Shown piece after piece: positions 2,586 through 56,872 of a DNA stretch of 64,000 bases. A program made the translations under genes and the position numbers. Source of the DNA: Gammaproteobacteria bacterium (GTDB taxonomy: Bacteria; Pseudomonadota; Gammaproteobacteria; Eutrophobiales; Eutrophobiaceae); assembly GCA_965215365.1 (NCBI GenBank), contig CBDCDS010000003.1:632383-696382 (forward strand). Reading direction: 5' to 3'. The notes under the pieces are model-generated. The model saw nothing but the letters and a program-made list of their open reading frames with translations, was not told where the DNA came from and made no database searches. Numbering within the stretch: the first letter of the stretch is position 1; each line of letters starts with the position of its first letter.

Positions 2586-2948
2586 TTGGGGGACAGAGGA
2601 ATCCCCTTAGAAAATCTGACGGGTTCGGAACATGACGACATCCTGGCAGGTGACCGGCGTGATAACTTTCTCATTGGCGGCGGCGGGCACGACACCTTCA
2701 AGCTCTCCACCGACCCGTTCTTTTATGCCTCGTGGCTCAACCAAGTGGAGCGATGGTTCGGACTCATCACGCAACAGGCTATCCGACGCGGCTCCTTCTC
2801 CTCAGTGAAACAACTTGTCAACAAAATCAACCAATTTGTGAACCACTACAATGATAACTCTCGCCCCTTCGTCTGGACTGCCACGGCTGAATCCATCCTC
2901 AACAAAGTAGAAAGATTATGCACAGTTATTTCCGGGACAGCACACTAG
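2586..2948 (+). pseudogene. mosaic remnant: an RTX-type Ca-binding repeat fragment (about 2586-2700) fused to an IS630-family transposase C-terminal fragment (about 2700-2948)
   Basis: N-terminal part carries GGxGxDxUx-like nonapeptides (LAGDRRDNFLIGGGGHDTFK). C-terminal part, SWLNQVERWFGLITQQAIRRGSF...YNDNSRPFVW, is the conserved end of IS630/Tc1 DDE transposases. No intact N-terminus is present. Confidence 0.55.
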
Positions 2949-3205
2949 AGGTGGCCATTCAAGCGGATTTATGCCCTTGTGCGGGTGCCGACCAGAGTTT
3001 TTCCAGTTGGTAATAGTCTCTGGTATCGGGGTGCATGACGTGGGCAATGACGTCGCCGAAGTCGATCAGAATCCACTCTGCCTGCTGCCGGCCTTCCACA
3101 CCCAGCGGTCTGATCTGCCGGGCCCGCGCCACCTCTATCACCTTGTCCGCAATGGCCTTGACCTGACGGTCGGAAGCGCCGCTAGCGATGATCATGTAAT
3201 CGGTC
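2901..3205. repeat. 305-bp direct repeat (left copy) flanking the IS1634-like element; identical to 5099-5403
   Basis: Base-for-base identity to 5099-5403 by direct reading. Contains the 3' end of the IS630 fragment and the 3' 78 codons of rsfS. Confidence 0.85.
2959..3195 (-). pseudogene. truncated duplicate of rsfS (C-terminal 78 codons only)
   Basis: Translation is identical to the C-terminus of the full rsfS at 5157-5495. It lies inside the 305-bp direct repeat. Confidence 0.8.
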
Positions 3206-5098
3206 CCGACTTCGACGGTCTGGTGCTTACTTTATCTGAAAATCTCTTGTAAATCAAAACGTGTTTTGGAGCAGGCAGTTGTAGTGCCTAGTTGATATTT
3301 GTAGCTTGACATTGTGGGCGGCGCGTGGTATCCTCCGGGCTATGTTCGTGCGCGTCAAAACCACCCCCAACAGCCCGCGTCAATCCGTACAACTCGTCGA
3401 GTCAGTGCGTGACGGCAAGGCCGTGCGCCAGCGCATTGTGCGCCATATCGGTATTGCCTTCGATGAAGACGAGCTCGTCCGGCTCAAAGACTTAGCCGAA
3501 GTGGTCAAAGCCAAACTTCAGGCCGAGACCCAGCCCGAGCTGTTCCCGCCCGAAGATGTCGCCGAGCAACTCAGCGCCGCCCGCGCCCGGCAGGACGACT
3601 CACCGCTGAAAGTCGAGCTCAAAGCCCTGCGGGAAACCCAGCGTGTCATCAGCGGCATCCATGCGGTGTACGGCGCCGTGTACGAGGACTTAGGGCTGTC
3701 CCGGTTGCTGCCAGCCTGGCGCTACCGGGCCTCGCACAAAGCGCTGTTCCATACGGTGATGGCGCGCCTAGCCAACCCGGACAGCAAACGGGCCAGTGTG
3801 CGCGCCCTGACAGCCGACTTCGGCGTGCAAGTGTCCCTGCCCCAAATCTACCGCATGATGGACTTGCTCGATGCGGCCTGTATCGAACGCCTCAATACCC
3901 TGGCCGAGACCCAAGCCCGGGCGCTGCTCGGCGGGCCGCTACGCGTGCTGTTCTTCGATTGCACCACCTTGTACTTTGAATCATTCACCGACGATGAGCT
4001 CAAACAACCCGGCTACAGCAAAGACGCCAAGTTCAAAGAATGCCAGGTGCTGCTGGCCCTGGCCGTCACCGACACCGGCCTGCCCGTGCGCTACACCGTG
4101 CTGCCCGGCGCCACCTTCGAGGGACACAGCCTCATCCCGGTGGTCAAAGCCTTACAAACCGACTGTCAGGCCGACAACGCCGTGGTCGTTGCCGACCGGG
4201 GGCTGCTGAGCAGGGATAACCTCAGCGCCTTAGAGGACGCCGGCCTGCACTACATCGTCGGTGCCCGACTCAAGTCCCTGCCGCACGCCCTGCAAACCCA
4301 AGTGCTCGATGAAGACCGCTATGAGACCCTGACAGATAGCGACGGACTGCGGGTGGCGGACCTACCCCACGACTCCCGCCGTCTGGTGGTGGGCTACTCC
4401 CCAGTGCGTGCCGAGAAAGACCGGCATGACCGCGACCAGGCCATCGCCAAGCTCCGTGAGAAACTGGCCAAAAGCCAAAACCCCAAAGACCTGCTCAACA
4501 ACTACGGTTATAAGAAATACCTCAAGGTAGACGGCAACAGTACCCTCAGCGTCAACCCCGATAAAATTGCCCAAGCACAACGCTGGGACGGCCTGCACGG
4601 GGTTATCACCAACCTGCCAACATCTACCACCGCCCCCGCCATCTTAAGCCAGTATCGCGGCCTGTGGCAGGTCGAAGATACCTTCCGGGTAAGTAAGCAC
4701 GATCTCAAGATAAGACCCATCTACCACTGGACCCCCCGACGCATCGAAGCCCACATCGCCATCGCCTTTATGTCCCTGCTCTGTGTCCGACACCTGCAAT
4801 ACCGCATGACCCTGCAAGCCAAGCCGGTCTCCCCCGAAGTCATCCGCAACGCGCTGGCCCACGTGCAGCACAGTGTCCTGACACATCAACAGACACACCG
4901 CCGCTACGTGATTCCCTCCGCCATCAGTGAAACCGCCCGGCGCCTCTACAAAATCATGGGATTGAGTCACTCCACCACCCCCTACGAGCTCAAATAGCCC
5001 GCCCCTGAGAACGCCGAAACAAGGCAATTGTAGTGCCTACGGGTCAACGCGCCTTCAATAAAATCAATCAGTTAGAGAAATAAACCGTCGAAGTCGGG
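3206..5098 (+). mobile_element. IS1634-like insertion sequence (IS4 superfamily), about 1.9 kb, with 14-15-bp terminal inverted repeats (CCGACTTCGACGGT)
   Basis: Left end cccgacttcgacggt and right end accgtcgaagtcggg are perfect inverted repeats. A single 563-aa transposase ORF lies inside. The element is flanked by 305-bp direct repeats. Confidence 0.75.
3306..4997 (+). CDS. DDE transposase, IS1634 family-like (IS4 superfamily)
   Basis: 563 aa. The N-terminus MFVRVKTT...SVQLVESVRDGKAVRQRIVRHIG resembles IS1634-group transposases. It sits between the IRs. Confidence 0.7.
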   Translation: MTLWAARGILRAMFVRVKTTPNSPRQSVQLVESVRDGKAVRQRIVRHIGIAFDEDELVRLKDLAEVVKAKLQAETQPELFPPEDVAEQLSAARARQDDSPLKVELKALRETQRVISGIHAVYGAVYEDLGLSRLLPAWRYRASHKALFHTVMARLANPDSKRASVRALTADFGVQVSLPQIYRMMDLLDAACIERLNTLAETQARALLGGPLRVLFFDCTTLYFESFTDDELKQPGYSKDAKFKECQVLLALAVTDTGLPVRYTVLPGATFEGHSLIPVVKALQTDCQADNAVVVADRGLLSRDNLSALEDAGLHYIVGARLKSLPHALQTQVLDEDRYETLTDSDGLRVADLPHDSRRLVVGYSPVRAEKDRHDRDQAIAKLREKLAKSQNPKDLLNNYGYKKYLKVDGNSTLSVNPDKIAQAQRWDGLHGVITNLPTSTTAPAILSQYRGLWQVEDTFRVSKHDLKIRPIYHWTPRRIEAHIAIAFMSLLCVRHLQYRMTLQAKPVSPEVIRNALAHVQHSVLTHQQTHRRYVIPSAISETARRLYKIMGLSHSTTPYELK

Positions 5099-5403
5099 AA
5101 CAAAGTAGAAAGATTATGCACAGTTATTTCCGGGACAGCACACTAGAGGTGGCCATTCAAGCGGATTTATGCCCTTGTGCGGGTGCCGACCAGAGTTTTT
5201 CCAGTTGGTAATAGTCTCTGGTATCGGGGTGCATGACGTGGGCAATGACGTCGCCGAAGTCGATCAGAATCCACTCTGCCTGCTGCCGGCCTTCCACACC
5301 CAGCGGTCTGATCTGCCGGGCCCGCGCCACCTCTATCACCTTGTCCGCAATGGCCTTGACCTGACGGTCGGAAGCGCCGCTAGCGATGATCATGTAATCG
5401 GTC
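5099..5403. repeat. 305-bp direct repeat (right copy) flanking the IS1634-like element
   Basis: Identical to 2901-3205. Confidence 0.85.
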
Positions 5404-13323: not shown

Positions 13324-14445
13324 TTGCCCTATAAACACAATACTATGAATATAACCTTAAATAGAGAACAACTGTTACCTGCCTTGTCTGATCTGAATGG
13401 TGTTGTTGAATCCAGGCCGGCCTTGGCAATTCTGGCCAATGTCCTGATCAATATTTCGCCCCAGGAAATCAGGCTGACGACAACAGATATGGAAGTTGAA
13501 CTTTCCGAAGCTATCCCAGGCGAGTTTGGAGAAACGGGGGAAATTACTGTTCCGGCGCGCAAGCTCTTGGACATTTGCCGGACTTTGCCGGAAGCCGCCG
13601 AGATCGCACTGACAGTTGAGGACGAACGGGTAAATGTGGCCTCTGGCAGAAGCCGATTCTCCTTGTTGTCACTGCCGGCACAGGAGTTTCCGAGAGTGGA
13701 ACCCGGCCAGACCGACGTCAGTTTTTCGTTATCGCAGGCGGTGTTCAAGTCGTTGCTGGAGCGTACCGCCTTTGCCATGGCTAGGCAGGATGTGCGCTAT
13801 TACCTGAATGGAGTCCTGTTGGAGGCGGAGGCAGGGCAGCTGCGCGCGGTCGCCACGGACGGACACCGGCTGGCCCTGTGTGAAGTTGACATTACGTTTC
13901 CCGCGGAGGAGAAAAAACAGTTAATCATGCCAAGGAAAGGCGTCATGGAGCTGCTGCGCTTGCTGCATGACTCGGAAGACGAGGTGGAAATCGTCATGAG
14001 CGGAAATCATATCCGCATTGTCAGGGGCGACCTGATCTTCACCAGTAAACTGATAGACGGCAAATACCCGGATTACAACCGGGTCATCCCGGCCCCGGCC
14101 CAACAGCCCGTGCTGGCCCAACGGGAGATATTGAAGCGGAGTCTCGGCCGCGCCTCAATACTATCCACCGACAAATACCGGGGGGTGAGAATAACGCTGG
14201 AAGAAAACAAACTCAGCGCAAACGTCCACAATCCTGAACAGGAACAGGCCGAGGACGAGATTGACGTCGAGTATTCGGGAGAGAAGCTGGAAGTCGGCTT
14301 CAACGTGAGTTATCTGCTTGACGCAGTCAGTATTATTCAGACCGACAAGGTAAAACTTTCCATCTCATCTCCGAAAAGCGGCTGTCTGGTATTGCCTGAG
14401 GAAGGCGAAGGGTGCAAGTACATCGTCATGCCGTTGATGCTTTAA
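13324..14445 (+). CDS. dnaN: DNA polymerase III beta sliding clamp (true start probably ATG at 13345)
   Basis: Full-length DnaN-like sequence (LSLLSLPAQEFP etc.). No dnaA is present upstream. Confidence 0.9.
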   Translation: MPYKHNTMNITLNREQLLPALSDLNGVVESRPALAILANVLINISPQEIRLTTTDMEVELSEAIPGEFGETGEITVPARKLLDICRTLPEAAEIALTVEDERVNVASGRSRFSLLSLPAQEFPRVEPGQTDVSFSLSQAVFKSLLERTAFAMARQDVRYYLNGVLLEAEAGQLRAVATDGHRLALCEVDITFPAEEKKQLIMPRKGVMELLRLLHDSEDEVEIVMSGNHIRIVRGDLIFTSKLIDGKYPDYNRVIPAPAQQPVLAQREILKRSLGRASILSTDKYRGVRITLEENKLSANVHNPEQEQAEDEIDVEYSGEKLEVGFNVSYLLDAVSIIQTDKVKLSISSPKSGCLVLPEEGEGCKYIVMPLML

Positions 14446-14493
14446 CCCGCATATCTCACCAAGTCACTTGTTTTAACACTGCTATCGCAGCCG

Positions 14494-15582
14494 ATGCGCA
14501 TTGAATGGCTGCACATCCGAAACGTTCGTAACCTGTCGGAACTGAGGTTAGAGCCGGCCGCCGGGCTTAACCTGATCTGTGGCCCGAACGGTAGCGGCAA
14601 GACGGCGCTGTTGGAAGCTATCTATTTTCTGGGGCGCTGTCGCTCATTTCGCACTGCCGCCATACAGCGGGTTATCCGCAACCAGCAACGCGCATTGCAG
14701 GTCAGCGCCGGATTGCTGCTTACCGATCAGCGTCGAATTGTTACGGGGGTGGAGCGCAGCCGGACGGCGCTCGATATCCGTTACAACAACACCACTGTGC
14801 ACAAGGTGTCCGAACAGGCAGCGCAGCTCCCCGTTATTACAATTATTCCGGAAAGCCACAGACTGGTTTCTGGCAGCCCGATATACCGCAGACGCTGGTT
14901 GGACTGGGCCATGTTTCACGTGGAACCACACTATATCAATCTCTGGCGGGACTATTACAAGGCGTTAAAACAGCGCAACAGCTTGCTTCGCTCGAACAGG
15001 GTCGAACAACTGGGTGCATGGGAACAAGCCATGGCGCGTGCCGCAGAAGCTATGACCGCACAGCGTACCGGCTTTATCGACGAACTGGCGGTGGCTATGA
15101 GCGCAGCCGCCCGGCGCTTGCAGATTGCACAAACTACGCTGGAATATGAGTGTGGTTGGCAGGCAGACACTGAGTTAGCCTCATTCCTCGCAGAGCAACG
15201 CAAAGGCGATCAGGAAAGAGGCACAACGCGACAAGGACTGCACCGCAGCGATATGACCATCCACCACGAGGGGAGGGAAGTCGGGCATTTTTATTCACGC
15301 GGGCAGATTAAGCTGTGCATTATTGCACTGTCGCTGGCCCTGGATAGTGTGTTCAGGAAGCGCACCGGGCGCATCCCGCTGATCTTGGCGGACGACCTGC
15401 CGGCGGAGTTGGATCAGAACAGCTTGCTGCGCGTTGTGGATGGATTGGCCGGGCAGGGGAGTCAGGTTTTCATCACTTCAACAGACTCGATTCCGGCAGT
15501 TTCACAGCATCCGCTAAAATTGTTTCACGTGGAACAGGGGCAGATTACCGACTCGGTGTTGTCCGGGTTCAGAAACAAGTGA
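14494..15582 (+). CDS. recF: DNA replication and repair protein RecF
   Basis: Walker A GPNGSGKT. RecF family; conserved position after dnaN. Confidence 0.9.
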   Translation: MRIEWLHIRNVRNLSELRLEPAAGLNLICGPNGSGKTALLEAIYFLGRCRSFRTAAIQRVIRNQQRALQVSAGLLLTDQRRIVTGVERSRTALDIRYNNTTVHKVSEQAAQLPVITIIPESHRLVSGSPIYRRRWLDWAMFHVEPHYINLWRDYYKALKQRNSLLRSNRVEQLGAWEQAMARAAEAMTAQRTGFIDELAVAMSAAARRLQIAQTTLEYECGWQADTELASFLAEQRKGDQERGTTRQGLHRSDMTIHHEGREVGHFYSRGQIKLCIIALSLALDSVFRKRTGRIPLILADDLPAELDQNSLLRVVDGLAGQGSQVFITSTDSIPAVSQHPLKLFHVEQGQITDSVLSGFRNK

Positions 15583-15613
15583 GACTCGAATAGACAAAAA
15601 ATCGGGTAGTGAA

Positions 15614-16045
15614 GTGTGTAAAGTGATTTCGATTAACTTACACAGGAGGACTACCCGATGCAGATCAAAAGGTAAGCGGGTGAAATCATATCGCAGTTGG
15701 CGCGTGGATGATACTACCGATGCTGACGCGCGCGGTCGTTTGAAGCAGTTGGAATGGGTTGCGACGTTACGCGAGGATGGGTGTGGTGAGGCGACGGCAC
15801 TGGCAGCAGTAGGTGGGTCGAGGGCGACCTACAACGGCTGTGTAGAACGCGCCAATGCCACCAGCCGCTATGAGTTCTATCCGTTCTACGAGGGTCCACT
15901 GACCGTGGCGGCCATCAACCGCAAACTGGCCGAGTATCAGCAATACTACAATACCTACCGCCCGCATGACGGTATTGGTTTATTAACCCCAATGGAGTAT
16001 TATCAACAACTCACACAGCCTGCCTCTGAGTCTCATATGTATTGA
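15614..16045 (+). pseudogene. integrase-core (rve) transposase C-terminal fragment, IS3/IS481-type
   Basis: Ends with ...YYNTYRPHDGIGLLTPMEYYQQL, a typical rve C-terminus. The N-terminal part is not transposase-like and there is no DDE N-terminus. Confidence 0.55.
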
Positions 16046-16060
16046 ACCTGGACAATCCGG

Positions 16061-16440
16061 TTGACACAGCATCAGCCGCAGTCCATACTGGCCGTACTAT
16101 GTCCGCTAAGTTTATCTGGCTCAATCTCGCCGGTTTGGGCCGTGACGGGCAAGATCGGCGCGTTCTTGCTGGTGTGGGGTTTCATTATTTGTCCGCTCAT
16201 TGCCATCAATGACTTAGCGCGATTGCTGGACAACATACTACACAGATGGGACGAGTAACCCAAATACTGCTGTGGATCAGCGTGGCCCTGGTGGTGGTCT
16301 GGCCGGCGCTGTTCCTGATTGTGCTGTTGGTGTGGGGATATATCATCTTGCCGATCATCCTGTTGCGGCTGCTGTATCTCTGGTGGCGGTTGCTGGTGGA
16401 CGGCCCCTCAGCCCTCGGCCAGCCGCACGAGCTCCCGTGA
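16061..16440 (+). CDS. two tiny overlapping hydrophobic ORFs (65 and 64 aa), hypothetical membrane peptides
   Basis: Hydrophobic composition only. Could equally be non-coding. Confidence 0.15.
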
Positions 16441-16647
16441 CACCACGTTGAGTTGACCGAGCAGGCGCGGGCCCGGGCGGATGTGCAGCCAGCGACACAG
16501 CGCTAACGCCTGCTCGTAGTCCAGACCGGCCACGCCGCCCAGCGGTAAGGTGTGGATGACGGCGGGGGCGCCCTGTATCAGGATGCGGATGGCATCGTGA
16601 TTGACCGGCAGCACATCGCAATCCTCGCCTCCCCACCAGGCCTGCAC
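16408..16647 (-). CDS. gpT-like frameshift extension of the tail assembly chaperone (G/GT arrangement)
   Basis: 79-aa ORF in a different frame directly after the gpG-like ORF. Contains a G..GLDYEQALALCRWL segment resembling the conserved GT-extension region. Confidence 0.4.
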   Translation of the reverse strand: MQAWWGGEDCDVLPVNHDAIRILIQGAPAVIHTLPLGGVAGLDYEQALALCRWLHIRPGPRLLGQLNVVSRELVRLAEG

Positions 16648-16655
16648 CGCCGCCG

Positions 16656-17000
16656 TCAGTTTCCCAGGGCGCGCGCCTCACCGAGTACCGCTCCGATATA
16701 CGCCGTGACCACCGCCGTGCGCACCCGCGGACGGGCGGTGAGCAGGTCGCGATTCGTCTCATTGAACGCCAGCGCCTTGCCGGCGGAGTCGGTTACATCG
16801 TCCCAACCAATCAGCACCCGGTTGACCAGGGCAATATCCGCGCGCGGCGCATCGAGCAGCGCATCGAGCTCAGCTTGCGTGAGCTCGACAAAGCGGGCGG
16901 TAAAGGTCTGCTTGTCGTGACCACTGCCGCCCGGCGCGGACACGCTCACCGGCATGGTGAACTCGCTGCTCTGCTCGGGTGTCAATAATTTTAATGTCAT
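16656..17000 (-). CDS. phage/GTA tail assembly chaperone, gpG-like
   Basis: 114 aa. Position and size are typical of gpG. Immediately followed by a gpT-like ORF in the -1 frame. Confidence 0.45.
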   Translation of the reverse strand: MTLKLLTPEQSSEFTMPVSVSAPGGSGHDKQTFTARFVELTQAELDALLDAPRADIALVNRVLIGWDDVTDSAGKALAFNETNRDLLTARPRVRTAVVTAYIGAVLGEARALGN

Positions 17001-17350
17001 GTGCTATACTCCTGATTATGTGTCGTGCTCTGATACTCACCGCTCTGCTCACGCTGCCCGTAGTGGCGCTGGCGCACGAGCCCCACTGGTTGCCGCCGGC
17101 GCCCTGGGGTGTGAATCCTTGTGATCTGCCCCGGGTGCGGTGCCCGCTGGCACTGATCAATATCCATGATAATCTGGTCTTAGCGCAACGGCGCCAGGAC
17201 ACCACGCAAGAGCGTTACTGGCTGGACCGGCTGGCGGGGTGGTACGCTTACAACCCCGACTACCGCCACCACCTGCATCCGCACCGCTAGACCGCCGGGT
17301 CTTATTCGTTGTTCCTCCCATGGCCCCGAAGCCGTCCCGGCGGCGGTGCG

Positions 17351-17924
17351 TTATGTCGCCTGGCCGTTGATGATCAAGGCCGGGCCGCTGGGCGGCTGTA
17401 AAATCTCGGCATTGAGTTGCAGCTGCTGCTCGGCGCTACGCCCGGCGGCTTTCATGGCCGCCTCGCCGGCGGGCGAGATGGCGCACAGCGGCGCATAATA
17501 GTCATTGCCGCGCCCGAAGGCGGCGGTCTCAAGATAGCGCACCCCGCGCCGGATTTGGCGCACCTCGCCGGTGATGGCCTGCTCGACGGTACCCGCCACC
17601 GGCGTGTAGGTCACTTTCAGCACATTGTCGGCCTTAATCTTGCCGCCCGGCTCAATGTACAGCCGGGCGCGCGCAGCGTCTAAGGTGTAATCGTCACCGG
17701 CCTTGGCCATCTTGCTCGCCGCCGATGGAATCGCCCAAGTAGCGCTCGCCGATGGGCGCATCGGCGTCGCTCAGGTCAACGAGGTAGAACTCGCCGGCGC
17801 CGATGATGATGTTCGATTTGCCATGTTTGTCTGTGGCTAAGCTCATAGTGTGTCTCCTAGGTCGGGTGGCTCTGTAACAGTCGTTCGCTCTGATAGCGTT
17901 GGCCGTACCACACCACGCCGGCAA
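17351..17924 (-). pseudogene. phage/GTA major tail protein-like gene disrupted by a frameshift
   Basis: Two overlapping ORFs in different frames (17694..17924 and 17351..17761), beta-rich tail-tube-like sequence, upstream of the chaperone pair. Confidence 0.35.
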
Positions 17925-18467
17925 AGTGTTCCGGGCCGACGATCCGATCTGGAAAACCCACTACCCGCCGAACGGGTTCGGCTGCCGCAGCCGACGAGCT
18001 GGGCAAGATCAGTGTCCCCAAACTGGAAGGGGCGCCACCGGCTATCGCCCGCCCGCACGTGCAGGACGCGCTGGATTATGGCGAGGTGTTGATTGACCAG
18101 CCGGAATCTTATGAAAGGCAAGGCAAACGTCACACGCTGATCGCCTATTACGAGGATGACGGCTGGTGGCGACACGTCATCGAAGTGCGGCACAAGCAAC
18201 TGCTGCTGCTGACAGCATTTCGAGACGAATATTCTGATATACGCACCGAGGATGTACTGCGCCGCCCGGGCCTGGTGACCGTGAGAGACTGGGACGAGAA
18301 CCGCTGGCGGGACAGACCGAAAGAGAGTGGGAAGTGAAGCATGGAAGGCGAATATCTCCACGGGCTCCCCGGCACAATCCGCTATGGATAGCCGGGTTCT
18401 ACGGTAAATCTGTACTCTACCTCACTTCCCAGAGTGCAGTATAACACAAAATGAAAACAGAACGTAA

Positions 18468-19991
18468 CTACTCGCCCCCCTTACCCTGATCTCTTGTTCT
18501 GATCTGGTTTTTCTTAACCGTTTTATTTTTGAGCGGTTTTTCCACCATGGTGGCGGCGTCTCCCTTGAGTGCTATCTCGATGGCGGCGAGGGGATTGTAG
18601 CCCTTCAGGGTCATAGACTGCAAGTAGCTGGAGATGCGGCAGTAGGTGTCGGCGTAGGCGGTGGTTCGGAAGCAGCCGGAGACTTTTTGTTTGACTTTAG
18701 CCATACGGATATCGCGTTCGGCGCGGTTGTTGGTGAACGGCACGTTGGGGTCGCGGGCGAAGCGGAGGACTTCGGTTTCGTACTTGACGAGGGCATCATG
18801 GAGGTTTTGTGCCTCACATTGGGCAATCCGTCCGCGTTGGCCGGTGAGCCGTTTCGGGGGTGTGGGGAGTTCCCGTTTGGCTTGTGTCAGGATAGTCCGG
18901 TAGCGGGTGCGCAGGGACTGGTAGTCGGTCTCGCTGAGTGCCTTGTTTTTATGTGTGCGCACCTGTCGGCAGGTCTTGAGCAGGAGGCGGCTCATACGTT
19001 GGGCCCAGGCATGGCCGTGGGCGTCCTCGATAAAGGCCAAGTTACGCAACAGGTGACTGCCGCACAGGGCATGCTCGCAGTTGTCATAGGCGAAGTAGCT
19101 GGCCCAGCGGTCGTGCACGAGAACACCGCCGTAGCGGGGGACGATGCCGATGTCCTTGAGGGCGTCCCCGCCCCGCTTGCGGTGGCAGTGTTTCAGTACC
19201 AGGTTCCCGGCACTGGTGCTGTGCAGCCAGTGTTGTGTGCGGTCGATGCGCAAGGAGGTCTCATCGGCGTGCAGCACGGGCTCTGTGAGCAGGCGGGCGA
19301 TAGCCGCCCGCTCCCACCCGGCCAGGGCCTCATGCACCCGCGTGAGCCAGGCCAGTAAGGTCGCCTCGGCGACGGCGCGCCCGGTCAGTGCATGAAGTGT
19401 CTGCGCCGTACGTTTGAGCGAGAGCATTTGGGCCGTTAACAGGTGCGTGGCGAAAGCCACGATGCCAGGGCCGTATTGTAAAGGCCCCGGCATGTCATCG
19501 GGAAACGCCCCGTGGGTCTCAGTGCCACAGCGCGGACAGGTTTTTATCTCGGCGTCAATGGTCAACTCGGTCGTCTCGAAGACTATATCGACCTTGACTC
19601 GTCGCACATGGCCGGTGGGGGCGGTGCCTTTGAGATCATGCCCGCAGGCCCGGCAGCCGGTCACGGGCACCGTGCGGGTCTGAGCCACCACGCGCCGGGA
19701 CGCGCTGGGCACCGTCCCGGTCTGCGGCCCCTTGCCCTGCTTGCCGGGCCGTGTGCGCGCACTGTCATCGGGGTCGGTGCGGGAACTGGGCAGGCTGGAG
19801 TTGTGCGCCCCCTTCGGTGTGGTCTTCTCTAAGAACACCGCCAGCAGCAACTCGAATAGCAGCAACATCGACTCGAACAGCGCACGCCCTTCGGGACTCA
19901 GCGCGCCGTCGGCGCACAACGCCTTAAAACGCATTCGGATGGCCTCGAACTCCGCACGCAATGAGGCCTTGTTCACCGTGGCCATGTGCAC
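18468..19991 (-). CDS. IS66-family transposase (TnpC-type)
   Basis: 507 aa with HADETSLRI, CGSHLLRNL and NNRAERDIRMAKVKQKVSGCFRT, the hallmark IS66 TnpC motifs. Confidence 0.85.
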   Translation of the reverse strand: MHMATVNKASLRAEFEAIRMRFKALCADGALSPEGRALFESMLLLFELLLAVFLEKTTPKGAHNSSLPSSRTDPDDSARTRPGKQGKGPQTGTVPSASRRVVAQTRTVPVTGCRACGHDLKGTAPTGHVRRVKVDIVFETTELTIDAEIKTCPRCGTETHGAFPDDMPGPLQYGPGIVAFATHLLTAQMLSLKRTAQTLHALTGRAVAEATLLAWLTRVHEALAGWERAAIARLLTEPVLHADETSLRIDRTQHWLHSTSAGNLVLKHCHRKRGGDALKDIGIVPRYGGVLVHDRWASYFAYDNCEHALCGSHLLRNLAFIEDAHGHAWAQRMSRLLLKTCRQVRTHKNKALSETDYQSLRTRYRTILTQAKRELPTPPKRLTGQRGRIAQCEAQNLHDALVKYETEVLRFARDPNVPFTNNRAERDIRMAKVKQKVSGCFRTTAYADTYCRISSYLQSMTLKGYNPLAAIEIALKGDAATMVEKPLKNKTVKKNQIRTRDQGKGGE

Positions 19992-20665
19992 TGTGCCTCC
20001 ACCGCCATCATCGCCGCCAGCACCGCCAGCCGCTCGGCCGGGGGCAAGTCACGATAACGCCGCCCCCAGTTCTCAGCCTTGCGCTTGACCTGCTGGCGGT
20101 GCGTGAAGTTGCGCCCCGCATAGCGCACCCAGTGCACCCGGTCCGGCACAAAATTGAACCAGACCCGCTCGGTCACCACCCCGCCCTGATTCATCACCTG
20201 CAAGGACACACTGCGCCAGCCCGCCAGCACCTCATCATACAAGGCCGAAGGATACCCCGACACCATCACCGCACAGGGCAGCCCCTGCAGTAACGCCAGC
20301 AGCGCCTCATGGTCTGAGTCCTCGTAGTCATACCGGTAACGGTGCCGTGACTTGCGCGTGCTGTGCAGGTAGGGCGGGTCGCTGTACACCAACTCCGTGC
20401 CGTCAAACGGAAAAGTCGCCAACCAGCGGTGACAACACCCCTGCACCAACTCCACCGGATACCCACACGTAAACCCCGCCAACGCCCGCACATCAAGATC
20501 AATCCCAATGTTGCGCAACGCCGCCGGCTTGCGCTGCATAATCGCCCCGCCGCCTAAGTGTGTCTCAATGTACACACTGTGCGGCGGCATCATCGCAATG
20601 AGCGGCTGGCACAGACCCGTCGTGGCTTTCGACCCTCGGTACGCATTCCCCATGACGACCAACAT
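19973..20665 (-). CDS. D12-class N6-adenine DNA methyltransferase (Dam-like), cargo of the IS66 element
   Basis: Motif I-like YIETHLGGGA and motif IV DPPY. 230 aa. Overlaps the transposase start by 19 bp. Confidence 0.65.
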   Translation of the reverse strand: MLVVMGNAYRGSKATTGLCQPLIAMMPPHSVYIETHLGGGAIMQRKPAALRNIGIDLDVRALAGFTCGYPVELVQGCCHRWLATFPFDGTELVYSDPPYLHSTRKSRHRYRYDYEDSDHEALLALLQGLPCAVMVSGYPSALYDEVLAGWRSVSLQVMNQGGVVTERVWFNFVPDRVHWVRYAGRNFTHRQQVKRKAENWGRRYRDLPPAERLAVLAAMMAVEAQCTWPR

Positions 20666-20817
20666 AACGCCATGACGCTATGTTGTCAAGGACGCCTTGA
20701 CAAAAAATTCAGTAGAATTAGAGGGAGGGGGCGAGTAGTTACAACAGAACAATTCATACCAGTAAGTATATCACGGCGGTCTGTTTTGTGGTCAGTTTGG
20801 GTAAGTATTTGATACAG

Positions 20818-21669
20818 TCAGACTTTTTCAAACAGGGTCAGGCTTAATATCTGTAATATTGTGTAGAGTTCGGTAGGCAGATCGAGCCGTTTTTTGATGA
20901 TGGCGACCAAGACATAAACGCCAATAGCGGTCCGGATTTGGGTTTTCACAGCATTCTCAGAGGTGCCGAAGAAGGCCTTGATACGCAGGTGTTGTTTGAT
21001 CCATTTGAAGAACAACTCGACCTGCCACCGGCAACGATACAAATCGGCAATGGTGACGGCCGGCAGGGTCAAGTTGTGGGTGAGGAACACCCGTGTTTTG
21101 CCGGTGTTGGCATCGTGATAGCGGATACGACGCAGGGTGTCGGGATAGCGCGGTGCGGAGCGTTGGCCGGTCAGCACGCCGGTCTGGTCGATGCGGCGGG
21201 AGTAGCGGCGCGCAAACTTGAGGTTGGACTTGGCTCGGATTACGAACAAGGCCGAGGCTAAGGTGAGGCCATGCAGTCGTTCGAAGTCGAGGTAGGCACG
21301 GTCCATGACGTAGAAGGCGCCGGGCTCGGGGATAAGCAGGTCGAGGGCATTGACATCGTGCAGTTTACCGTCGGAGACATGGATAAAGGCGGGGATACTG
21401 CCTTGTAAGTCCAGTAAGGTATGCAGTTTGATGGCGGCCTTGGTCTGTCGGAAGTGCGCCCAGGGGAATACGGACAGGCACAGGTCGACCTCGATATCGC
21501 GCAGGCTCTCGCGGTGGGTGAGTTGGGCGAAGGCCAGGCATAGGAACTGGTCAAGACAGGTAAAAGACTTGACGTAGCGATTGCCGTGGTAGCGTTGGAC
21601 GCAGCGGCGGAAAGTGTGCATGGGCAAGTGGGCCATGAGTTGTGAGAAGACGAAATTGCCGGTATACAT
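20818..21669 (-). CDS. DDE transposase, IS4/IS5 superfamily (DDE_Tnp_1)
   Basis: 283 aa with ...DRAYLDFERL... and YRCRWQVELFFKWIKQ (the catalytic E/K region). Confidence 0.7.
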   Translation of the reverse strand: MYTGNFVFSQLMAHLPMHTFRRCVQRYHGNRYVKSFTCLDQFLCLAFAQLTHRESLRDIEVDLCLSVFPWAHFRQTKAAIKLHTLLDLQGSIPAFIHVSDGKLHDVNALDLLIPEPGAFYVMDRAYLDFERLHGLTLASALFVIRAKSNLKFARRYSRRIDQTGVLTGQRSAPRYPDTLRRIRYHDANTGKTRVFLTHNLTLPAVTIADLYRCRWQVELFFKWIKQHLRIKAFFGTSENAVKTQIRTAIGVYVLVAIIKKRLDLPTELYTILQILSLTLFEKV

Positions 21670-21884
21670 GGGGCTGCACTCCTTGGTTATGAATGGGAGT
21701 CACAGCATGGCAGTCAGGGTCGGTGGAGTTCAAGTCGATGACAGGCATAAAACGACTGTTTATTAAGTTGTATCAATGAGTTATGATGCACGAACAAGGT
21801 TTTCTTGGGACACTAGTGAGGCGGCCTCTAAAAATCAGGGAATTATATACGATAGCGCCGAACCGCTATCAAGACCGATATTGG

Positions 21885-22514
21885 TTACTCCGGCTCAAAT
21901 CTTTGCAGGAATGCAAGCGCATTTTTCAAAAAGTCCTTGCCATTGCGGAATCTCCCCAACCCTGTATTGCAACTATCGCAAACATAATCCCTTGCATCTC
22001 CAGTTAAATGTCCATGATCTAAAACAATCTTGACGGTTACCCCCACTATGCCGTCTTTTTCACATATAGGACAACGCCAGAACACTCCTATTGGGGGCTT
22101 ATAAGGAACAGAGCCATCTTTACGCTTCGCATGATTGCGCACGCCGTCAATGCCCCTTCTGCAATCTACGCAGGTAGGACGATATATCGTTGAACCATCC
22201 TTCCGAGTTTGGTTTGCATCGAAATGTTTTAACGCTTTAAGGGTAAAACACTGATTACAGACTTTTTCAATTTGATCTTTTGGCTTCAATCCTACATGCT
22301 TCATAAACTCGCGCTGACGGGCGCTGATTTGAATAGGATATTCCTCTGGAGCAAAAGGCTTAACCGCATCTGTCGGTAAAACTTGCACGCGTCCACCCAA
22401 TGGAATTTTAACTTCGACCCCTCGGTCTGTGCGTTTTTGCACCATTGCCAACCGCCCATCAGCAACAATGACAACCCATTCAGGGGGCTGCTCTGGCGGT
22501 TCATTTGATGTCAT
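21885..22514 (-). CDS. HNH/Endonuclease VII-fold nuclease; putative type II restriction endonuclease
   Basis: C-terminal CPICEKDG...LDHGHLTGDARDYVCDSCNTGLG matches the CxxC...DHxHxTGxxRGxxCxxCNxxLG signature of phage T4 Endo VII-like HNH nucleases. It overlaps the upstream MTase gene by 4 bp (ATGA). Low GC. Confidence 0.55.
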   Translation of the reverse strand: MTSNEPPEQPPEWVVIVADGRLAMVQKRTDRGVEVKIPLGGRVQVLPTDAVKPFAPEEYPIQISARQREFMKHVGLKPKDQIEKVCNQCFTLKALKHFDANQTRKDGSTIYRPTCVDCRRGIDGVRNHAKRKDGSVPYKPPIGVFWRCPICEKDGIVGVTVKIVLDHGHLTGDARDYVCDSCNTGLGRFRNGKDFLKNALAFLQRFEPE

Positions 22515-23293
22515 GCGGTTGCTGCCATGATCTGGTTTCCCAGCCTGGTTTTTGCAATGTCAATGTATTCCTCGGATATATCAATGCCGATCCAATCACG
22601 ACCGTTATAAGCTGCCATTTTGCAAGTTGTGCCTGACCCGCACATCGGATCAAATACCAGATCGCCGGGATTCGTCCACGAAAGGATATGATCTTCGGCC
22701 AGCTTTTCTGGAAATACTGCCGGATGATTAAATGCTATTTTGTCCCTTGTGGTTCCTCCCAGACCAACCGCATAAGCCCATATATTGGTCCTGGTCTTTT
22801 CTTTCTTTAATTCTTTCAGCACTTTGTTATTGACCGCATCCGGGCCCTTGTTGTGAACCATCATTTCGTAGCCGTTGCGGACTGTTTTTTCCTTAATCGG
22901 ATTGAATGTATCAGGTGACCCTTTGGAAAATACAAACATGAACTCGTGACAGTTAGTGTAAGCGTTGCTGCGCATGAAAGGTGTATTTTTCTTCTGGTAA
23001 ATCATCACGTCATGGACGCGGAATCCCAAAGCCTGGAAAAACAGCGCTTGCTTCATACTGGTCAGCGTCCTGCCGCCATGACCATTTATCTTGTCACCCA
23101 CGACCCAAACAACCACGCCTCCTTCCTTCGTGACACGAAACAGTCCTGCCGCTATATCTTCAAATGGAAATGAATAACCCTGGTAATTCCTCAAATTGTC
23201 ATACGGCGGCGATGTGACAGTTAAATCAACCATGCCCTCATCCATGGCGGCCATAATTTTCACACAGTCGCCCGTGTAAAGGTGGTTTCTCAT
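22511..23293 (-). CDS. DNA methyltransferase (beta-class N4-C/N6-A; TSPPY motif IV precedes FDPMCGSGTT motif I)
   Basis: 260 aa with TSPPYDNL and FDPMCGSGTT in permuted order, typical of beta-class amino-MTases. Low GC. Translationally coupled to the nuclease gene. Confidence 0.75.
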   Translation of the reverse strand: MRNHLYTGDCVKIMAAMDEGMVDLTVTSPPYDNLRNYQGYSFPFEDIAAGLFRVTKEGGVVVWVVGDKINGHGGRTLTSMKQALFFQALGFRVHDVMIYQKKNTPFMRSNAYTNCHEFMFVFSKGSPDTFNPIKEKTVRNGYEMMVHNKGPDAVNNKVLKELKKEKTRTNIWAYAVGLGGTTRDKIAFNHPAVFPEKLAEDHILSWTNPGDLVFDPMCGSGTTCKMAAYNGRDWIGIDISEEYIDIAKTRLGNQIMAATA

Positions 23294-23327
23294 GCGATCA
23301 GGTTCTCATAATTCAGGGCGCGTTGCT

Positions 23328-26033: not shown

Positions 26034-26077
26034 GGGAACCTCTAAAAATACCCTCCGTGGTATTTTTAGAGGTTCCC
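26034..26077. repeat. REP-like perfect hairpin GGGAACCTCTAAAAATACC-CTCCGT-GGTATTTTTAGAGGTTCCC
   Basis: 19-bp perfect inverted repeat with a 6-nt loop. Family members are at 31509, 37969, 41221, 45211, 50189, 55794 and 56838. Confidence 0.8.
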
Positions 26078-26080
26078 ATC

Positions 26081-26380
26081 ACTTATTGAGAGCCATCATG
26101 TTTCACAAGGCAACAAGCGACTGGGTGAGATCTGCGGGATAGCCCGCATATCTCACCGAGTGATGCGAAGATCGCGCCGGATTGGTTCTGCCTGCGGGTG
26201 CCTGCGACCGAAACCATAGTGGTTCTCTGGTTGAGGAAGCACGTGCCTGCAGGCAGAACCAAGACCCGCGAGGGCGCATCAAGCGCAGTGGGTTATGGGG
26301 AAAGAGTAGCAGTATGATCATCACTTATTGAGAGCCATCATGTTTCACAAGGCAACAAGCGACTGGGTGAGATCTGCGGG
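26081..26380. repeat. MITE-like element, inverted orientation: 58-bp terminal partial copy plus one full 238-bp copy separated by ATAG; ends 17 bp before the bcp start codon
   Basis: Reverse complement of the 239-bp unit at 31690-31928, with terminal inverted repeats CCCGCAGATCTCACCCAGT / ACTGGGTGAGATCTGCGGG. Confidence 0.8.
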
Positions 26381-26397
26381 CTAAGGGTGACGCGACT

Positions 26398-41161: not shown

Positions 41162-41255
41162 CAAAAAAACTCCCCCAGGCCCATGAAATAGGCTTGAAAA
41201 TGCGATATGGTTAGCTCTGAAAATACCACGGAGGGCATTTTCAAATGGTTCCGGT

Positions 41256-49604: not shown

Positions 49605-50199
49605 TACCGGCGTCGGCAAAACCCGGGTCACGTTGGCGCTGATGGCGGCCTGGCAGGCGCGCGGGTGGGTGGTGAACGGCATGAAGCCGGTTGCCAGCGG
49701 CAGCGAGTGGCGCCACGGGCGTCTGGAAAACGAGGACGCGCGCCTGATTCACGCGCAGTGCAGCCTGCCGGTTAGCTACGAACAGGTGAATCCGTACGCG
49801 TTGGCCGAGCCAATCGCCCCGCATATTGCCGCAACCAAGGCCGGGATCGAGGTTGAACCGGACACCTTGGTTGCGGCCTACCGTTGCCTGACGGCCGGGG
49901 CCGACCGGGTGGTGGTGGAAGGGGTCGGCGGCTGGCGGGTGCCGCTGGCACCGGGGCTACAAACTGAAGATCTGGTGCGGTCTCTGGACCTGGCTGTAGT
50001 GCTGGTGGTCGGGCTGCGTCTGGGCTGCATCAACCATGCTTTACTTACCATGGAGGCCATAAGCGCCGCCGGGGCGCCTTGCGCCGGGTGGCTGGGCAAC
50101 AGCATCTGCCGTGACTATGCCGAGCAGCAGGCCACCCTGGACTATCTGCGCGACCAGCTGCCGGCACCTTGCCTGGGGTTCATTCCGTGGCATTTTTAG
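49576..50199 (+). CDS. bioD: dethiobiotin synthetase
   Basis: P-loop GTDTGVGKT. 207 aa. Confidence 0.85.
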   Translation: MTNIFITGTDTGVGKTRVTLALMAAWQARGWVVNGMKPVASGSEWRHGRLENEDARLIHAQCSLPVSYEQVNPYALAEPIAPHIAATKAGIEVEPDTLVAAYRCLTAGADRVVVEGVGGWRVPLAPGLQTEDLVRSLDLAVVLVVGLRLGCINHALLTMEAISAAGAPCAGWLGNSICRDYAEQQATLDYLRDQLPAPCLGFIPWHF

Positions 50200-50208
50200 A
50201 GGTTCCCG

Positions 50209-53168: not shown

Positions 53169-54401
53169 TTAAATAAACATTTGCTGCAACAGCCCCTGCT
53201 TGAAGAAGCAGGCCTGTTCGACCTGTTTCGCTACCAGTTCTATTTTCCGGTCGATGGCGGAGAGGAAATTGGCGATTTTTTGTTGTTCACATTTTGAGGG
53301 TATGCTTAATTTGAGGAATCTGAGATGAGAAGCATATAAATGAATAACCGATATTCCCTGCGCCAATCTGGCTATATCAGCCTTCTTATAATTCAAATAA
53401 TACGCAAGAAACACCCCGTTTTCCTGGCAGCGAATTATGTTTATGTCACCTCCCAGCGCAACCCCGTCAAGCCTTACACAAGCGGCGGTTGCTATGTCTG
53501 ATGCAATCTCGCCGGATGAGGGAATAATGACATCGTTTTTGTTGCTCAATTCCAGCTGAGAAGGTGGGATATTAGTGCTCGAAATTACCAGGGAAATTGT
53601 AGTTCCATAGTGGGTGTAGAGTTCCCCATACCTGATACACTTTAATTCTCCATTTGTTACGACATCGCTCTTTGAAATTCCTTTACCCTTACTTATCTTT
53701 GAAATATCACCCAATGATTTCTCCTCCCAATCCGGATAATCCCTCCCATCCTCATCCTTGAACCGAATTTCCTGACTGAACAGTTTTTGCATCATGCCTT
53801 GCTTGTACTGTTCCAGCAGCGACTGCTTCCGGCTCAGTTGCTCAATTTTGATATCAACCGCCGACAGGAAAGCAGCGATTTTTTGTTGTTCTCTTATAGC
53901 CGGAATACATAGTGGGATCTTTTTGATCTCACTCTTGCTTATTTCAAGGAAGGTAGAACCATTTGCTCTACGCAAAAAATGCTTTTTGTTTGCAAGAAGC
54001 CAATAGTAAAGATACTCATTTGAGAACATTGAGTCATTTACAATAAACGACTGAAACCCCTGGTTTGTTGTGCAGACTTCACGAGCAATGCTGACCTCGC
54101 CTATTGTTGCCCTGCTGGTGAATAAAATTGTCCCAACAGGCAGTAAGGCAGCAGAGGATTGAGCAATACCTTCCCTGGTTATTTTGCGGATACTGCCAGT
54201 AGCATATTTCGTCTTGATTTCTGTCGGAGTGAACCAGTTTATATCACCGTCCCATAAGCTCCTCTTGCCAGTGCTGGGGGTGCCACCCCCAACAATATCT
54301 CCGACATGATCCAACTTTTTCATCTCCCAATCCGGATAATCCCCCCCATCCTCATCCTTAAACCGCAACGCCGGCACGCGTTGTTGTTGTGCTGTAATCA
54401 T
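53169..54401 (-). CDS. hsdS: type I restriction-modification S (specificity) subunit
   Basis: 410 aa with two target-recognition domains, each preceded by the conserved repeat RFKDEDG(G/R)DYPDWE. Confidence 0.85.
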   Translation of the reverse strand: MITAQQQRVPALRFKDEDGGDYPDWEMKKLDHVGDIVGGGTPSTGKRSLWDGDINWFTPTEIKTKYATGSIRKITREGIAQSSAALLPVGTILFTSRATIGEVSIAREVCTTNQGFQSFIVNDSMFSNEYLYYWLLANKKHFLRRANGSTFLEISKSEIKKIPLCIPAIREQQKIAAFLSAVDIKIEQLSRKQSLLEQYKQGMMQKLFSQEIRFKDEDGRDYPDWEEKSLGDISKISKGKGISKSDVVTNGELKCIRYGELYTHYGTTISLVISSTNIPPSQLELSNKNDVIIPSSGEIASDIATAACVRLDGVALGGDINIIRCQENGVFLAYYLNYKKADIARLAQGISVIHLYASHLRFLKLSIPSKCEQQKIANFLSAIDRKIELVAKQVEQACFFKQGLLQQMFI

Positions 54402-54659
54402 TCGCTCACGTTAATCAGGACATCGGGCAGGTGGCGCATGGACAGGATTACTCAGAATCAATATGCTCATTATTACGGACGTGATGACAATCAGTGGGCG
54501 CATGATAATTTCAATCATGTTTTTCCTCTGATGATCGGGCTAACGCTGAAATCGCTGCCATTATGGCGAATGGGATTGCGATATGCAAATCTACCATCCC
54601 TTTGATTTTCAGGCCGGTAACGGTATAGTAAATCTACCCTCAATAAGCATTAAAGAGAT

Positions 54660-55043
54660 ATGAACCTGCATGTGACTATTCCTGAGAGCAAGGCGTTGGC
54701 GGCTTTTTGCCTAGAGAACGGTATCATAAAGCTGGCTGTTTTCGGCTCAGCCCTGCGCGAGGATTTCAACGCGGAAAGTGATATTGACCTGTTGGTCAAG
54801 TTCAGGCCTGAGGCCGCTGCTGACTTGTTCAAAATGGCTGGAATTGAAATTGCCCTTTCTCCATTGTTTGGCGGACGCAGTATCGACCTGCGCACGCTGG
54901 AGGAGCTGAGTCCCTACATCAGAGGTAGAGTACTTAACGACGCAATATTACTGGTAGATATTGCTGCGTCGGAAGACGAAGGGAGTAAAGTAAGGCATGA
55001 CCATTCCAGCGCGGCCGATGTGATAACCCATGTCCATCATTGA
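54660..55043 (+). CDS. MNT-domain nucleotidyltransferase (MntA-like antitoxin of a HEPN/MNT pair)
   Basis: GSALRED...SDIDLLV (GSx10DxD nucleotidyltransferase motif). Confidence 0.75.
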   Translation: MNLHVTIPESKALAAFCLENGIIKLAVFGSALREDFNAESDIDLLVKFRPEAAADLFKMAGIEIALSPLFGGRSIDLRTLEELSPYIRGRVLNDAILLVDIAASEDEGSKVRHDHSSAADVITHVHH

Positions 55044-55413
55044 TGACAATACCCGGTTACGGCACATGCTGGACGCAGGATGTGAAGCTATTGAAATGAG
55101 TAAGGGTAAAAGTCGAAATGATTTGGCCAATGATCGTAAGCTGTCCTTAGCATTGGTGAAGCTTTTGGAGACTGTTGGAGAGGCTGCGTATAAGGTGTCA
55201 CAGGAAAAAAGACTTGAACTTGATCAAATTGAGTTTGAAAAGATCATCAAAATGCGTCATCGGCTTGTCCACGACTATTTCGACATTAACTACGGCGTTA
55301 TCTGGAATACGATACAAAATAGCCTGCCTGAATTGGTGAGGCAACTTCAAGAGCTGCCCGAATGCAGCAATGATATGGTGCCTGCCTCATCGATGCCTTT
55401 AGATAAATGGTAG
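55030..55413 (+). CDS. HEPN-domain protein (HepT-like toxin)
   Basis: RHRLVHDY (the Rx4-6H HEPN motif). Overlaps the MNT gene by 14 bp. Confidence 0.7.
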   Translation: MSIIDDNTRLRHMLDAGCEAIEMSKGKSRNDLANDRKLSLALVKLLETVGEAAYKVSQEKRLELDQIEFEKIIKMRHRLVHDYFDINYGVIWNTIQNSLPELVRQLQELPECSNDMVPASSMPLDKW

Positions 55414-55454
55414 TGGAGACACCTGTGAGTCCTGGTTGCGCTCCCCGGTCATAC

Positions 55455-55612
55455 CGACTATCAGGTGGCATTGCGGGAAATAGAAACCCTGATGACGGCC
55501 CGGCCGGATTCGCCCGAGGGTGGAAAACTGGATGTGTTGACGACACTGGTCGAAGCATACGAGCGCAGGCATTATCCTCTGGAGCTACCCGATAATGAAC
55601 TGCCGCGCTAGC
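55455..55612 (+). pseudogene. HigA-like antitoxin N-terminal fragment (about 90% nt identity to 56494-56640)
   Basis: Encodes ...[46 protein letters not shown] then an immediate stop. The HTH domain is missing. Confidence 0.7.
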
Positions 55613-56448: not shown

Positions 56449-56451
56449 TCC

Positions 56452-56838: not shown

Positions 56839-56872
56839 AGGCCACCTCTAAAAAATTAGAGGTGGCCGTGCA

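Follow-up and report, generated by a model that had tools for sequence, protein, structure and literature searches.

A putative miniature inverted-repeat transposable element family with 4-bp YTAR target duplications in uncultured gammaproteobacteria

Upstream of both bcp and rpoH in a 64,000-nucleotide stretch of a Gammaproteobacteria bacterium genome (GenBank assembly GCA_965215365.1, contig CBDCDS010000003.1, positions 632,383 to 696,382; hereafter the window) lie copies of a 239-bp repeat, raising the question of whether it is a mobile element, a regulatory device or a locally duplicated segment. A preliminary description, made from the sequence alone, had proposed an element with terminal inverted repeats (TIRs) in TTAA-separated arrays, inserted in promoters of stress genes. 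We find that the repeats are very probably copies of a non-autonomous DNA transposon, or miniature inverted-repeat transposable element (MITE), in uncultured marine and sponge-associated gammaproteobacteria. This reading follows from their TIRs, a duplication of fixed length, their small non-coding size, their occurrence at many unrelated loci, and presence/absence differences. The core of the earlier proposal, a TIR-bounded, non-coding, multi-copy mobile element with target-site duplications, is supported; the family is apparently genuine and undescribed, and a familiar kind of selfish DNA.

The repeated unit and its copies in the window

A perfect 19-bp TIR, CCCGCAGATCTCACCCAGT on the left and ACTGGGTGAGATCTGCGGG on the right, bounds the 239-bp reference unit at 31690-31928. 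With up to three mismatches allowed, the 19-mer matched 11 sites in the window, compared to 0.01 expected. The unit, its 19-bp TIRs, the tandem copies near rpoH and the inverted copy near bcp were all confirmed in the sequence. The bcp-side element ends at 26380, 17 bp before the bcp ATG at 26398, as first described, while the rpoH-side array begins 202 bp upstream of the start codon of rpoH (30633-31484, minus strand). The copies, junctions and remnants are as follows.

14446-14472, plus strand: 27-nt left-end remnant with TTAA on both sides (14442-14445 and 14473-14476), found by TIR match
26077-26138, minus strand: partial copy, unit positions 1-62 (left TIR and part of the variable region), 95% identical to the unit by BLAST
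26139-26142, minus strand: 4-bp spacer between partial and full copy, CTAT in element orientation (ATAG on the plus strand), from sequence
26143-26380, minus strand: full-length copy, 238 bp, 92.5% identity to unit positions 1-239 by BLAST
31686-31689, plus strand: TTAA flank of the rpoH-side array, repeated at 31929-31932 and 32172-32175, from sequence and the Tandem Repeats Finder period of 243
31690-31928, plus strand: full-length copy 1, 239 bp, the reference unit, from sequence, TIR matches and BLAST
31933-32171, plus strand: full-length copy 2, 99.6% identical to copy 1 by sequence comparison
32176-32378, plus strand: degenerate copy 3, from alignment with the 311- and 395-bp variants L030, L020 and L075
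34541-34594, minus strand: 54-nt mini-element, right TIR to an internal CCTGCGGG pseudo-end, by BLAST
35900-35927, minus strand: 28-nt left-end remnant with TTAA at 35928-35931, between a cytochrome c gene and resB, found by TIR match

Tandem Repeats Finder described the rpoH-side array at 31686-32255 as 2.3 copies of period 243 with 99% matches. It consists of two full copies and a degenerate third, with TTAA before each (31686, 31929, 32172). Copies 1 and 2 are each 92.5-92.9% identical to the bcp copy. The third copy does not end at 32255-32270 but extends to about 32378, as an internally deleted, 3'-truncated longer variant. Its first 80 nt are 98.8% identical to the unit and are followed by an internal deletion and then by longer-variant sequence that holds a nested module of about 72 nt, the right arm and right TIR being missing.

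The bcp-side array combines an inverted full copy, its variable, AT-rich left end pointing towards bcp, with a 62-nt partial copy that is identical to the first 62 nt of its full-length neighbour and is truncated against a REP-like hairpin (26034-26079). The outer flank of the full copy (26381-26384) is TTAG in element orientation (CTAA on the plus strand) and mismatches the CTAT opposite. TTAA at every junction, as first proposed, therefore holds for the rpoH array and not for the bcp array, with its CTAT spacer and TTAG flank.

Two of the three short remnants elsewhere in the window lie at stop codons. The left TTAA of the 14446-14472 remnant overlaps the dnaN stop codon; at this site, relatives L075 and L081 (loci outside the window are cited by L number) have TTAA/TAA followed by other sequence. 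Next to the mini-element at 34541-34594 is a CTAT whose CTA is the stop codon of a minus-strand GTPase open reading frame (ORF; 34595-35551, probable engB/yihA). Unlike the 14446-14472 remnant, both this fragment and the one at 35900-35927 had been noted as truncated ends; the fragments are real, and the former matches a recurrent mini-element of 54-56 nt whose second end is the internal CCTGCGGG. A further TIR-like match at 20115, with three mismatches, lies inside an ORF without adjoining element sequence and was rejected.

Copies across genomes carry 4-bp YTAR duplications

In a scan that covered one genome per species, the TIR pattern matched at least 72 loci, about 60 of them from gammaproteobacterial metagenome-assembled genomes (MAGs). 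At least eight host MAGs were represented, including Ca. Azotimanducaceae, Ca. Azophilus, several unnamed lineages, and the sponge-derived bins SB0662_bin_58 and RHO3_bin_19. The remaining matches were scattered and single, in the number expected by chance. BLAST with the unit returned 26 full-length matches at 61-86% identity, most of them 238-243 bp long, and a TIR-pair scan identified 57 complete elements of 66-468 bp among the matches listed.

Identical 4-mers were present on both sides of 33 of these 57 copies, with a one-base difference in 15 more, while the next-outer 4-mers, used as a control, matched in none of the 57. The consensus YTAR fits 92 of 114 flanks, and the target logo reads C/T (91%), T (92%), A (94%) and G/A (100%). 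The identical pairs comprise CTAG (19), TTAG (5), CTAA (5) and TTAA (4). Because the non-palindromic CTAA/CTAA and TTAG/TTAG pairs are direct repeats, the duplication is 4 bp long, rather than TA plus an extra TIR base. An IS630-like arrangement of a TA duplication with a 20-bp TIR was ruled out, as the CTAA, TTAG and TTAA pairs would require target-dependent terminal bases. Copies elsewhere thus retain both TIRs and 4-bp duplications, the features whose absence would have pointed to a simple segmental repeat. The fixed TTAA spacer of the preliminary description reflects a real 4-bp duplication, of which TTAA is merely one allele of YTAR (4 of the 33 identical pairs).

Sequence beyond the duplicated bases is also non-random. 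G is enriched at target positions -10 to -5, and GCGGG directly precedes the duplicated 4-mer in 8 of 112 flanks, where base composition predicts about 0.3. The eight are not all independent events, since at least two of them are tandem junctions of the window itself. The responsible enzyme may therefore prefer YTAR beside end-like sequence (GCGGG-YTAR). Targets often fall at gene ends because YTAR contains TAA or TAG.

Related genomes differ in the presence of copies

Three copies in OZ242179.1 (L001, L008, L016) are 99-100% identical; their sites differ, and every one has a CTAG of its own. Of the relatives found, the closest is L075 (OZ241347.1; Bcp 94% identical, shared genes about 89% identical in DNA), which is collinear with the window from leuS through rpoH except for a 7.7-kb island found only in the window. 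Its gcvR-bcp spacer is 117 bp long and has no MITE copy, and the region upstream of its rpoH also has none; both sites are likewise without copies in the more distant relative L081 (OZ220714.1). L075 has its own CTAG-flanked copy of 395 bp between recF and bamC, where the window has the island.

The island (15552-23300) replaces 0.5 kb that in L075 contains a REP-like hairpin as well as the 395-bp copy. It encodes an IS3 fragment, an IS66 transposase (18468-19991), an IS4-family transposase (20818-21669), an HNH/endonuclease VII-like protein and an N4/N6 DNA methylase.

Size classes and derivatives

Variants range from 56 to 468 bp, most being about 240 bp, and cluster near 158, 240, 287 and 311-340 bp. 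The 158-bp class (L046, L070) is the form of the element without an 84-nt insert, described below. In the larger classes, further small hairpin modules are nested within the 240-nt element, and since matching duplications are retained, these forms moved after gaining the modules. The variable region has no conserved reading frame, the larger variants represent nested modules and not gene remnants, and no transposase remnant was found in any size variant. The 54-56-nt mini-elements run from one TIR to the internal CCTGCGGG, followed by YTAR, and recur in the window, L067 and L025. They suggest that the terminal CCCGC/GCGGG is what the enzyme cuts.

In Azotimanducaceae genome pairs with about 94% DNA identity, orthologous MITE copies differ by nested hairpin modules of about 50-100 nt:

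L031 6421-6701 compared with L044 3027-3357: orthologous copies differing in modules
L028 6294-6761 compared with L054 6545-6908: orthologous copies differing in modules

Since presence and absence vary between genomes this similar, the modules come and go over short timescales, and could themselves be mobile elements.

A covarying palindrome interrupted by a variable insert

The structure of the unit was read from 24 aligned copies, each about 240 nt long (A1). Sequence is conserved at the ends and throughout the right-hand 140 nt, while positions 19-102 are variable and AT-rich. In the consensus fold, positions 1-18 pair with the last 18, and approximately 103-165 with approximately 166-226. 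The element is therefore a palindrome of about 160 bp, with the variable AT-rich insert of 84 nt interrupting its left arm. The internal palindrome noted earlier is real, as the unit folded as single-stranded DNA has an energy of -68.9 kcal/mol (z = -10.6).

Across 23 distinct copies, 98.3% of cells in the TIR columns are paired. Arm pairing reaches 97.8% of cells, compared to 87.3% in column shuffles and 28-54% when partners were slid, and 23 of 55 arm pairs show double changes affecting both sides. Watson-Crick pairs number 1215, G-T pairs 18 (15 of them in one column) and A-C pairs 16, with no strand asymmetry. Covariation without strand bias gives no hint of selection on one strand as RNA, so the constraint on the arms looks to be at the DNA level rather than the RNA level.

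Within the variable insert, TTTCAATnnGTTA is conserved in 21 of the 24 aligned copies and resembles a binding site for integration host factor (IHF). The IHF consensus is WATCAANNNNTTR, from which the motif differs by one mismatch in most copies. In so short an element, a foldback or cruciform, possibly aided by bending of the IHF type, would place the two ends side by side for synapsis, which could explain why arm pairing is preserved.

A proposed trans-acting transposase and the points that weigh against the MITE reading

A DDE transposase supplied in trans would cleave at the CCCGC...GCGGG ends and insert the element into a 4-bp YTAR target, which would be duplicated. IS5 and ISXo1 duplicate YTAR (PMC10359306; bioRxiv 10.1101/2023.04.27.538605) and MITEPsy1 duplicates CTAG/YTAA (PMC3189936); the target signature of the present family points to an IS5-group enzyme, a descent that we infer from the target alone. 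An autonomous partner is expected to be bounded by the family end sequence, CCCGCATATCTCACCAAGT. The only lead to such a partner comes from two contig ends of MAG_seacave_114 (JBPCXK01), L038 1510-1631 and L039 1-70. Both carry the same TIR and then unrelated sequence, in which a CAATAAGTTA motif is spaced from the end as it is in the MITE, and a ribosome-binding site with an ATG follows about 95 nt in, at the point where the left part of the MITE also ends.

Two other candidates were set aside. A 1.07-kb extra segment in L028 relative to L054 was ruled out as an inserted insertion sequence (IS), being a length difference in a coding region. The IS630-like element in relative L082 has the TIR GTGTRCTGTCCC, unrelated to that of the MITE. 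As an observation in its own right, this intact IS630-family copy (L082 19803-20948) encodes a DDE_3 transposase and is flanked by a TA duplication inside CTAG.

Several results weigh against the interpretation of the repeats as a MITE family driven by an IS5-group enzyme. TIR pairs 0.6-3 kb apart, as in a partner element, were absent from the 72 loci of the matches listed, and about 80 retrieved loci yielded no partner. A metagenome scan with the putative IS left end returned nothing, a second one with TIR+A returned two chance matches inside genes, and no autonomous partner was found in viral contigs or plasmids. The window's own transposases (IS1634, IS4, IS66 and IS630/IS3 fragments) were rejected as partners because they have other ends or belong to other families. 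IS5-group ends typically begin GG or GA. The CCC ends of the present family differ from these and from the GGAAGGT-type ends of MITEPsy1/ISPsy2 (PMC3189936). An IS701-family origin was also considered: its end consensus, which does not cover the whole family, is ---YACT-Y--YR with a 4-bp conserved duplication (PMC2266710), and while the duplication length fits, TIR positions 4-7 are GCAT and not YACT.

The window sites themselves also fall short of clean empty/filled pairs. At bcp, the array stands in place of a 29-bp stretch present in the relative (TTTTAGAGATTTCTTGAACTTATAAAACC), and the full copy has mismatched flanks. On the rpoH side, homology with the relative stops at 31675, 11 bp before the array, beyond which the relative continues with ftsY and the window with an AAA ATPase gene. 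From this replacement, the mismatched flanks and the end of synteny, we conclude that rearrangement, and not only simple insertion, shaped both loci. Recombination between copies could have caused the breakpoint at which the rpoH array stands. Finally, subfamilies that coexist in a single genome (L011 compared with L012/L068), and so presumably use one transposase, preserve the complementarity of their arms. Binding of both ends by the same protein is insufficient as an account of this, and the arm covariation is not fully explained, foldback and IHF-type bending being offered here as a proposal.

A more specific version of the MITE reading, which we consider rather unlikely, is that the family is an offshoot of an undescribed IS lineage with CCC...GGG ends, a TA-centred 4-bp duplication, a target preference for its own end junctions (GCGGG-YTAR-CCCGC) and foldback-dependent transposition. 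If this were true, a foldback requirement would explain why 55 arm pairs are kept by double substitutions between subfamilies in one host genome, and pairing would be a mechanistic requirement, met through a cruciform or single-strand hairpin intermediate or IHF-assisted synapsis.

Origin of the arrays

Among the roughly 60 loci of the matches listed, two complete tandem copies were found only in this window, and tandem full-length arrays are accordingly not a trait of the family. Abutted ends that share one 4-mer also occur in L039, where a probable IS end adjoins a related 159-bp element, and in L015, L041 and L071, where a copy adjoins a bare GCGGG. If the enzyme prefers end-like targets, the flank of a resident copy (GCGGG-YTAR) would be a hot spot, and insertion there would place copies end to end with one shared 4-mer between them. 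That copies 1 and 2 are nearly identical fits either local re-insertion or unequal exchange between flanking TTAAs, and we give these roughly even odds. Copy 3 differs from them in structure, which means that elements arrived at the rpoH site at least twice.

Neighbouring genes and promoters

The proposal that copies are inserted in promoters of stress genes was not upheld. Other copies in the window lie between dnaN and recF, at the stop codon of the GTPase gene, and between the cytochrome c gene and resB, with no bias towards stress genes. Nor did the bcp promoter, suggested to lie inside the element, find support: no sigma-70-like promoter was predicted in or next to the element at bcp, and transcription of this gene may come from gcvR read-through or from an unrecognised promoter. 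The sole promoter-like site for rpoH (31667-31638, minus strand) falls in the interval that separates the array from the gene, and the sequence there is conserved in relative L075, which is without the array; the rpoH promoter is thus likely outside the array. Nothing suggests a regulatory role at bcp or rpoH, and the positions beside these genes are probably incidental intergenic landing sites rather than a dedicated regulatory device.

Alternative explanations

The same evidence bears on two functional readings of the unit. The preliminary description had raised the possibility of a structured RNA. Strong covariation, together with the stability of the fold and a length of about 240 nt conserved between genera, would suit a dispersed non-coding RNA gene or cis-acting RNA element whose hairpin is kept for RNA folding. 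We nevertheless judge this very improbable, since the pair counts lack wobble intermediates and strand asymmetry, Rfam returned nothing beyond generic miRNA-hairpin matches far below threshold, no sigma-70-like promoter was predicted in the element, and T-runs stand before the hairpin and not after it, leaving no intrinsic terminator on either strand. Perfect target-site duplications and variants of 56-468 bp are, moreover, features of a transposon. Slightly better placed, but still improbable, is a palindrome adopted by the host for protein binding or nucleoid structuring (compare REP/BIME and ERIC), which would bind IHF or a similar protein, influence neighbours such as bcp and rpoH, and be retained for that effect. 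Adoption would agree with the conserved IHF-like motif, the intergenic position of the window copies, and the replacement of the relative's 29 bp upstream of bcp. It agrees poorly with insertion sites that are not conserved (both are empty in the close relative L075), with functionally unrelated neighbouring genes and no promoter predicted in the element, and with the many copies that are truncated or degenerate.

Plain local tandem or segmental duplication without transposition, with the TIRs being just a palindrome, is the account to which we give almost no credence for the arrays as a whole. Adjacent copies are 99.6-100% identical while the two arrays are about 7.5% apart, unequal exchange between flanking 4-mers would leave exactly one 4-mer per junction, and two complete tandem copies are confined to this window among the matches listed, all of which would suit duplication; as the origin of copy 2 from copy 1 it is plausible. 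It leaves unexplained the approximately 60 dispersed copies in other genomes with their own YTAR duplications, and the structurally different copy 3 requires more than one arrival.

Other features of the window

The window also contains another family of short repeats, hairpins of about 44 nt (GGAACCTCTAAAAATRCCCTCCGTGGYATTTTTAGAGGTTCC) that lie mostly at gene ends, with 9 core matches compared to 0.5 expected. These hairpins also occur at orthologous spots in the relative and look REP-like or terminator-like.

26034-26079, 31506-31527, 37968-38006, 41207-41252, 50189-50202, 55788-55831: GGAACCTCTAAAAATRCCCTCCGTGGYATTTTTAGAGGTTCC hairpin sites

The AAA_22/AAA_16 ATPase gene beside the rpoH array (32449-33759) belongs to a strongly expanded family. 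The same contig has several paralogues with 65-80% identity, or about ten when more distant and partial members are included; three are clustered in relative L082, and more than 12 are on another contig. A link between the MITE and this multi-copy gene was ruled out, as no copy was found within 10 kb of the L082 paralogue cluster.

An IS1634-family IS occupies 3206-5098 (ORF 3306-4997; NF033559, 356 bits; 14-bp TIR CCCGACTTCGACGG), with a perfect direct duplication of 305 bp on its two sides (2901-3205 and 5099-5403). This agrees with the very long and variable target duplications reported for IS1634/IS1549 (PMC2266710). The duplicated segment opens with the right end of an IS630-family element (...GGGACAGCACAC TA G; window 2586-2948), of which the L082 element described above is an intact copy, and a 93% copy of part of the region 2901-5403 is present at 56870-57169.

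A 23-bp unit, CTATCGCTGAACTCGTTACAATT, possibly an iteron-like or origin-associated repeat, is repeated 5.4 times at 62608-62748, just downstream of mnmG/gidA (60470-62494). A type I restriction-modification locus (53169-59738) comprises hsdS (53169-54401) and hsdM (58149-59738), with an MNT/HepT toxin-antitoxin pair inside it (54660-55413). Its internal direct repeats at 55451-57790 are 91-99% identical and may be substrates for shuffling of hsdS fragments.

Implications and comparison with known systems

The TIR, the YTAR duplication and the size classes provide a repeat model for annotating Ca. Azotimanducaceae, Ca. Azophilus and sponge-associated gammaproteobacteria, where MITE copies would otherwise be miscalled as small ORFs (two 79-aa ORFs traverse the window array). 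Short-read assemblies may also be interrupted at such repeats; one MAG has the TIR at two of its contig ends. Copies mark points of genome change, as at the rpoH breakpoint and at bcp, where 29 bp of native upstream sequence were replaced. The unusual points, a long strand-neutral covarying palindrome and a preference for end-like targets, are of some mechanistic interest and make a workable system for studying the synapsis of very short transposons. That question is modest rather than a long-standing open one, and no new kind of system is suggested.

Among known elements, the Correia elements of Neisseria (CREE/NEMIS) are short MITEs bounded by TIRs; they occupy about 100 or more intergenic sites, often beside promoters or gene ends, and have an IHF-binding site and a hairpin fold. 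They have a TA duplication, a length of 100-155 bp and 26-bp TIRs, with documented promoter, terminator and RNase III effects. The present family is likewise a short, TIR-bounded, intergenic hairpin MITE, but differs in its 4-bp YTAR duplication and 19-bp TIRs. Members of the piggyBac/IS1380 superfamily have CCC...GGG ends and a 4-bp TA-centred duplication, TTAA for piggyBac, and IS1380-family ends start with CC and have 4-5-bp duplications. Our family resembles them in its CCC...GGG ends and TA-centred 4-bp duplication, but prefers CTAG and not TTAA; no IS1380-type transposase was found, with no dedicated IS1380/piggyBac test having been made. REP/BIME and ERIC sequences are also intergenic, palindromic and multi-copy, and some bind IHF, but they do not combine TIRs with a target-site duplication, and REPs are moved by Y1 (RAYT) enzymes without duplication.

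The 4-bp duplication with consensus YTAR is shared with IS5 and ISXo1 (PMC10359306; bioRxiv 10.1101/2023.04.27.538605). The IS5 group is autonomous, about 1.2 kb long and transposase-carrying, whereas no transposase gene was recovered with the present TIRs. MITEPsy1 of Pseudomonas syringae, thought to be derived from ISPsy2 of the IS5 family and shown to move (PMC3189936), differs in being 100 nt long, in its GGAAGGT... ends, unrelated to the CCCGCATATCTC of the present family, in having no long covarying palindrome or variable insert, and in having a known partner IS. It is like the present family in being non-coding and TIR-bounded (its own TIRs are 18 nt long), in inserting at CTAG or YTAA with a 4-nt duplication, and in having a gammaproteobacterial host.

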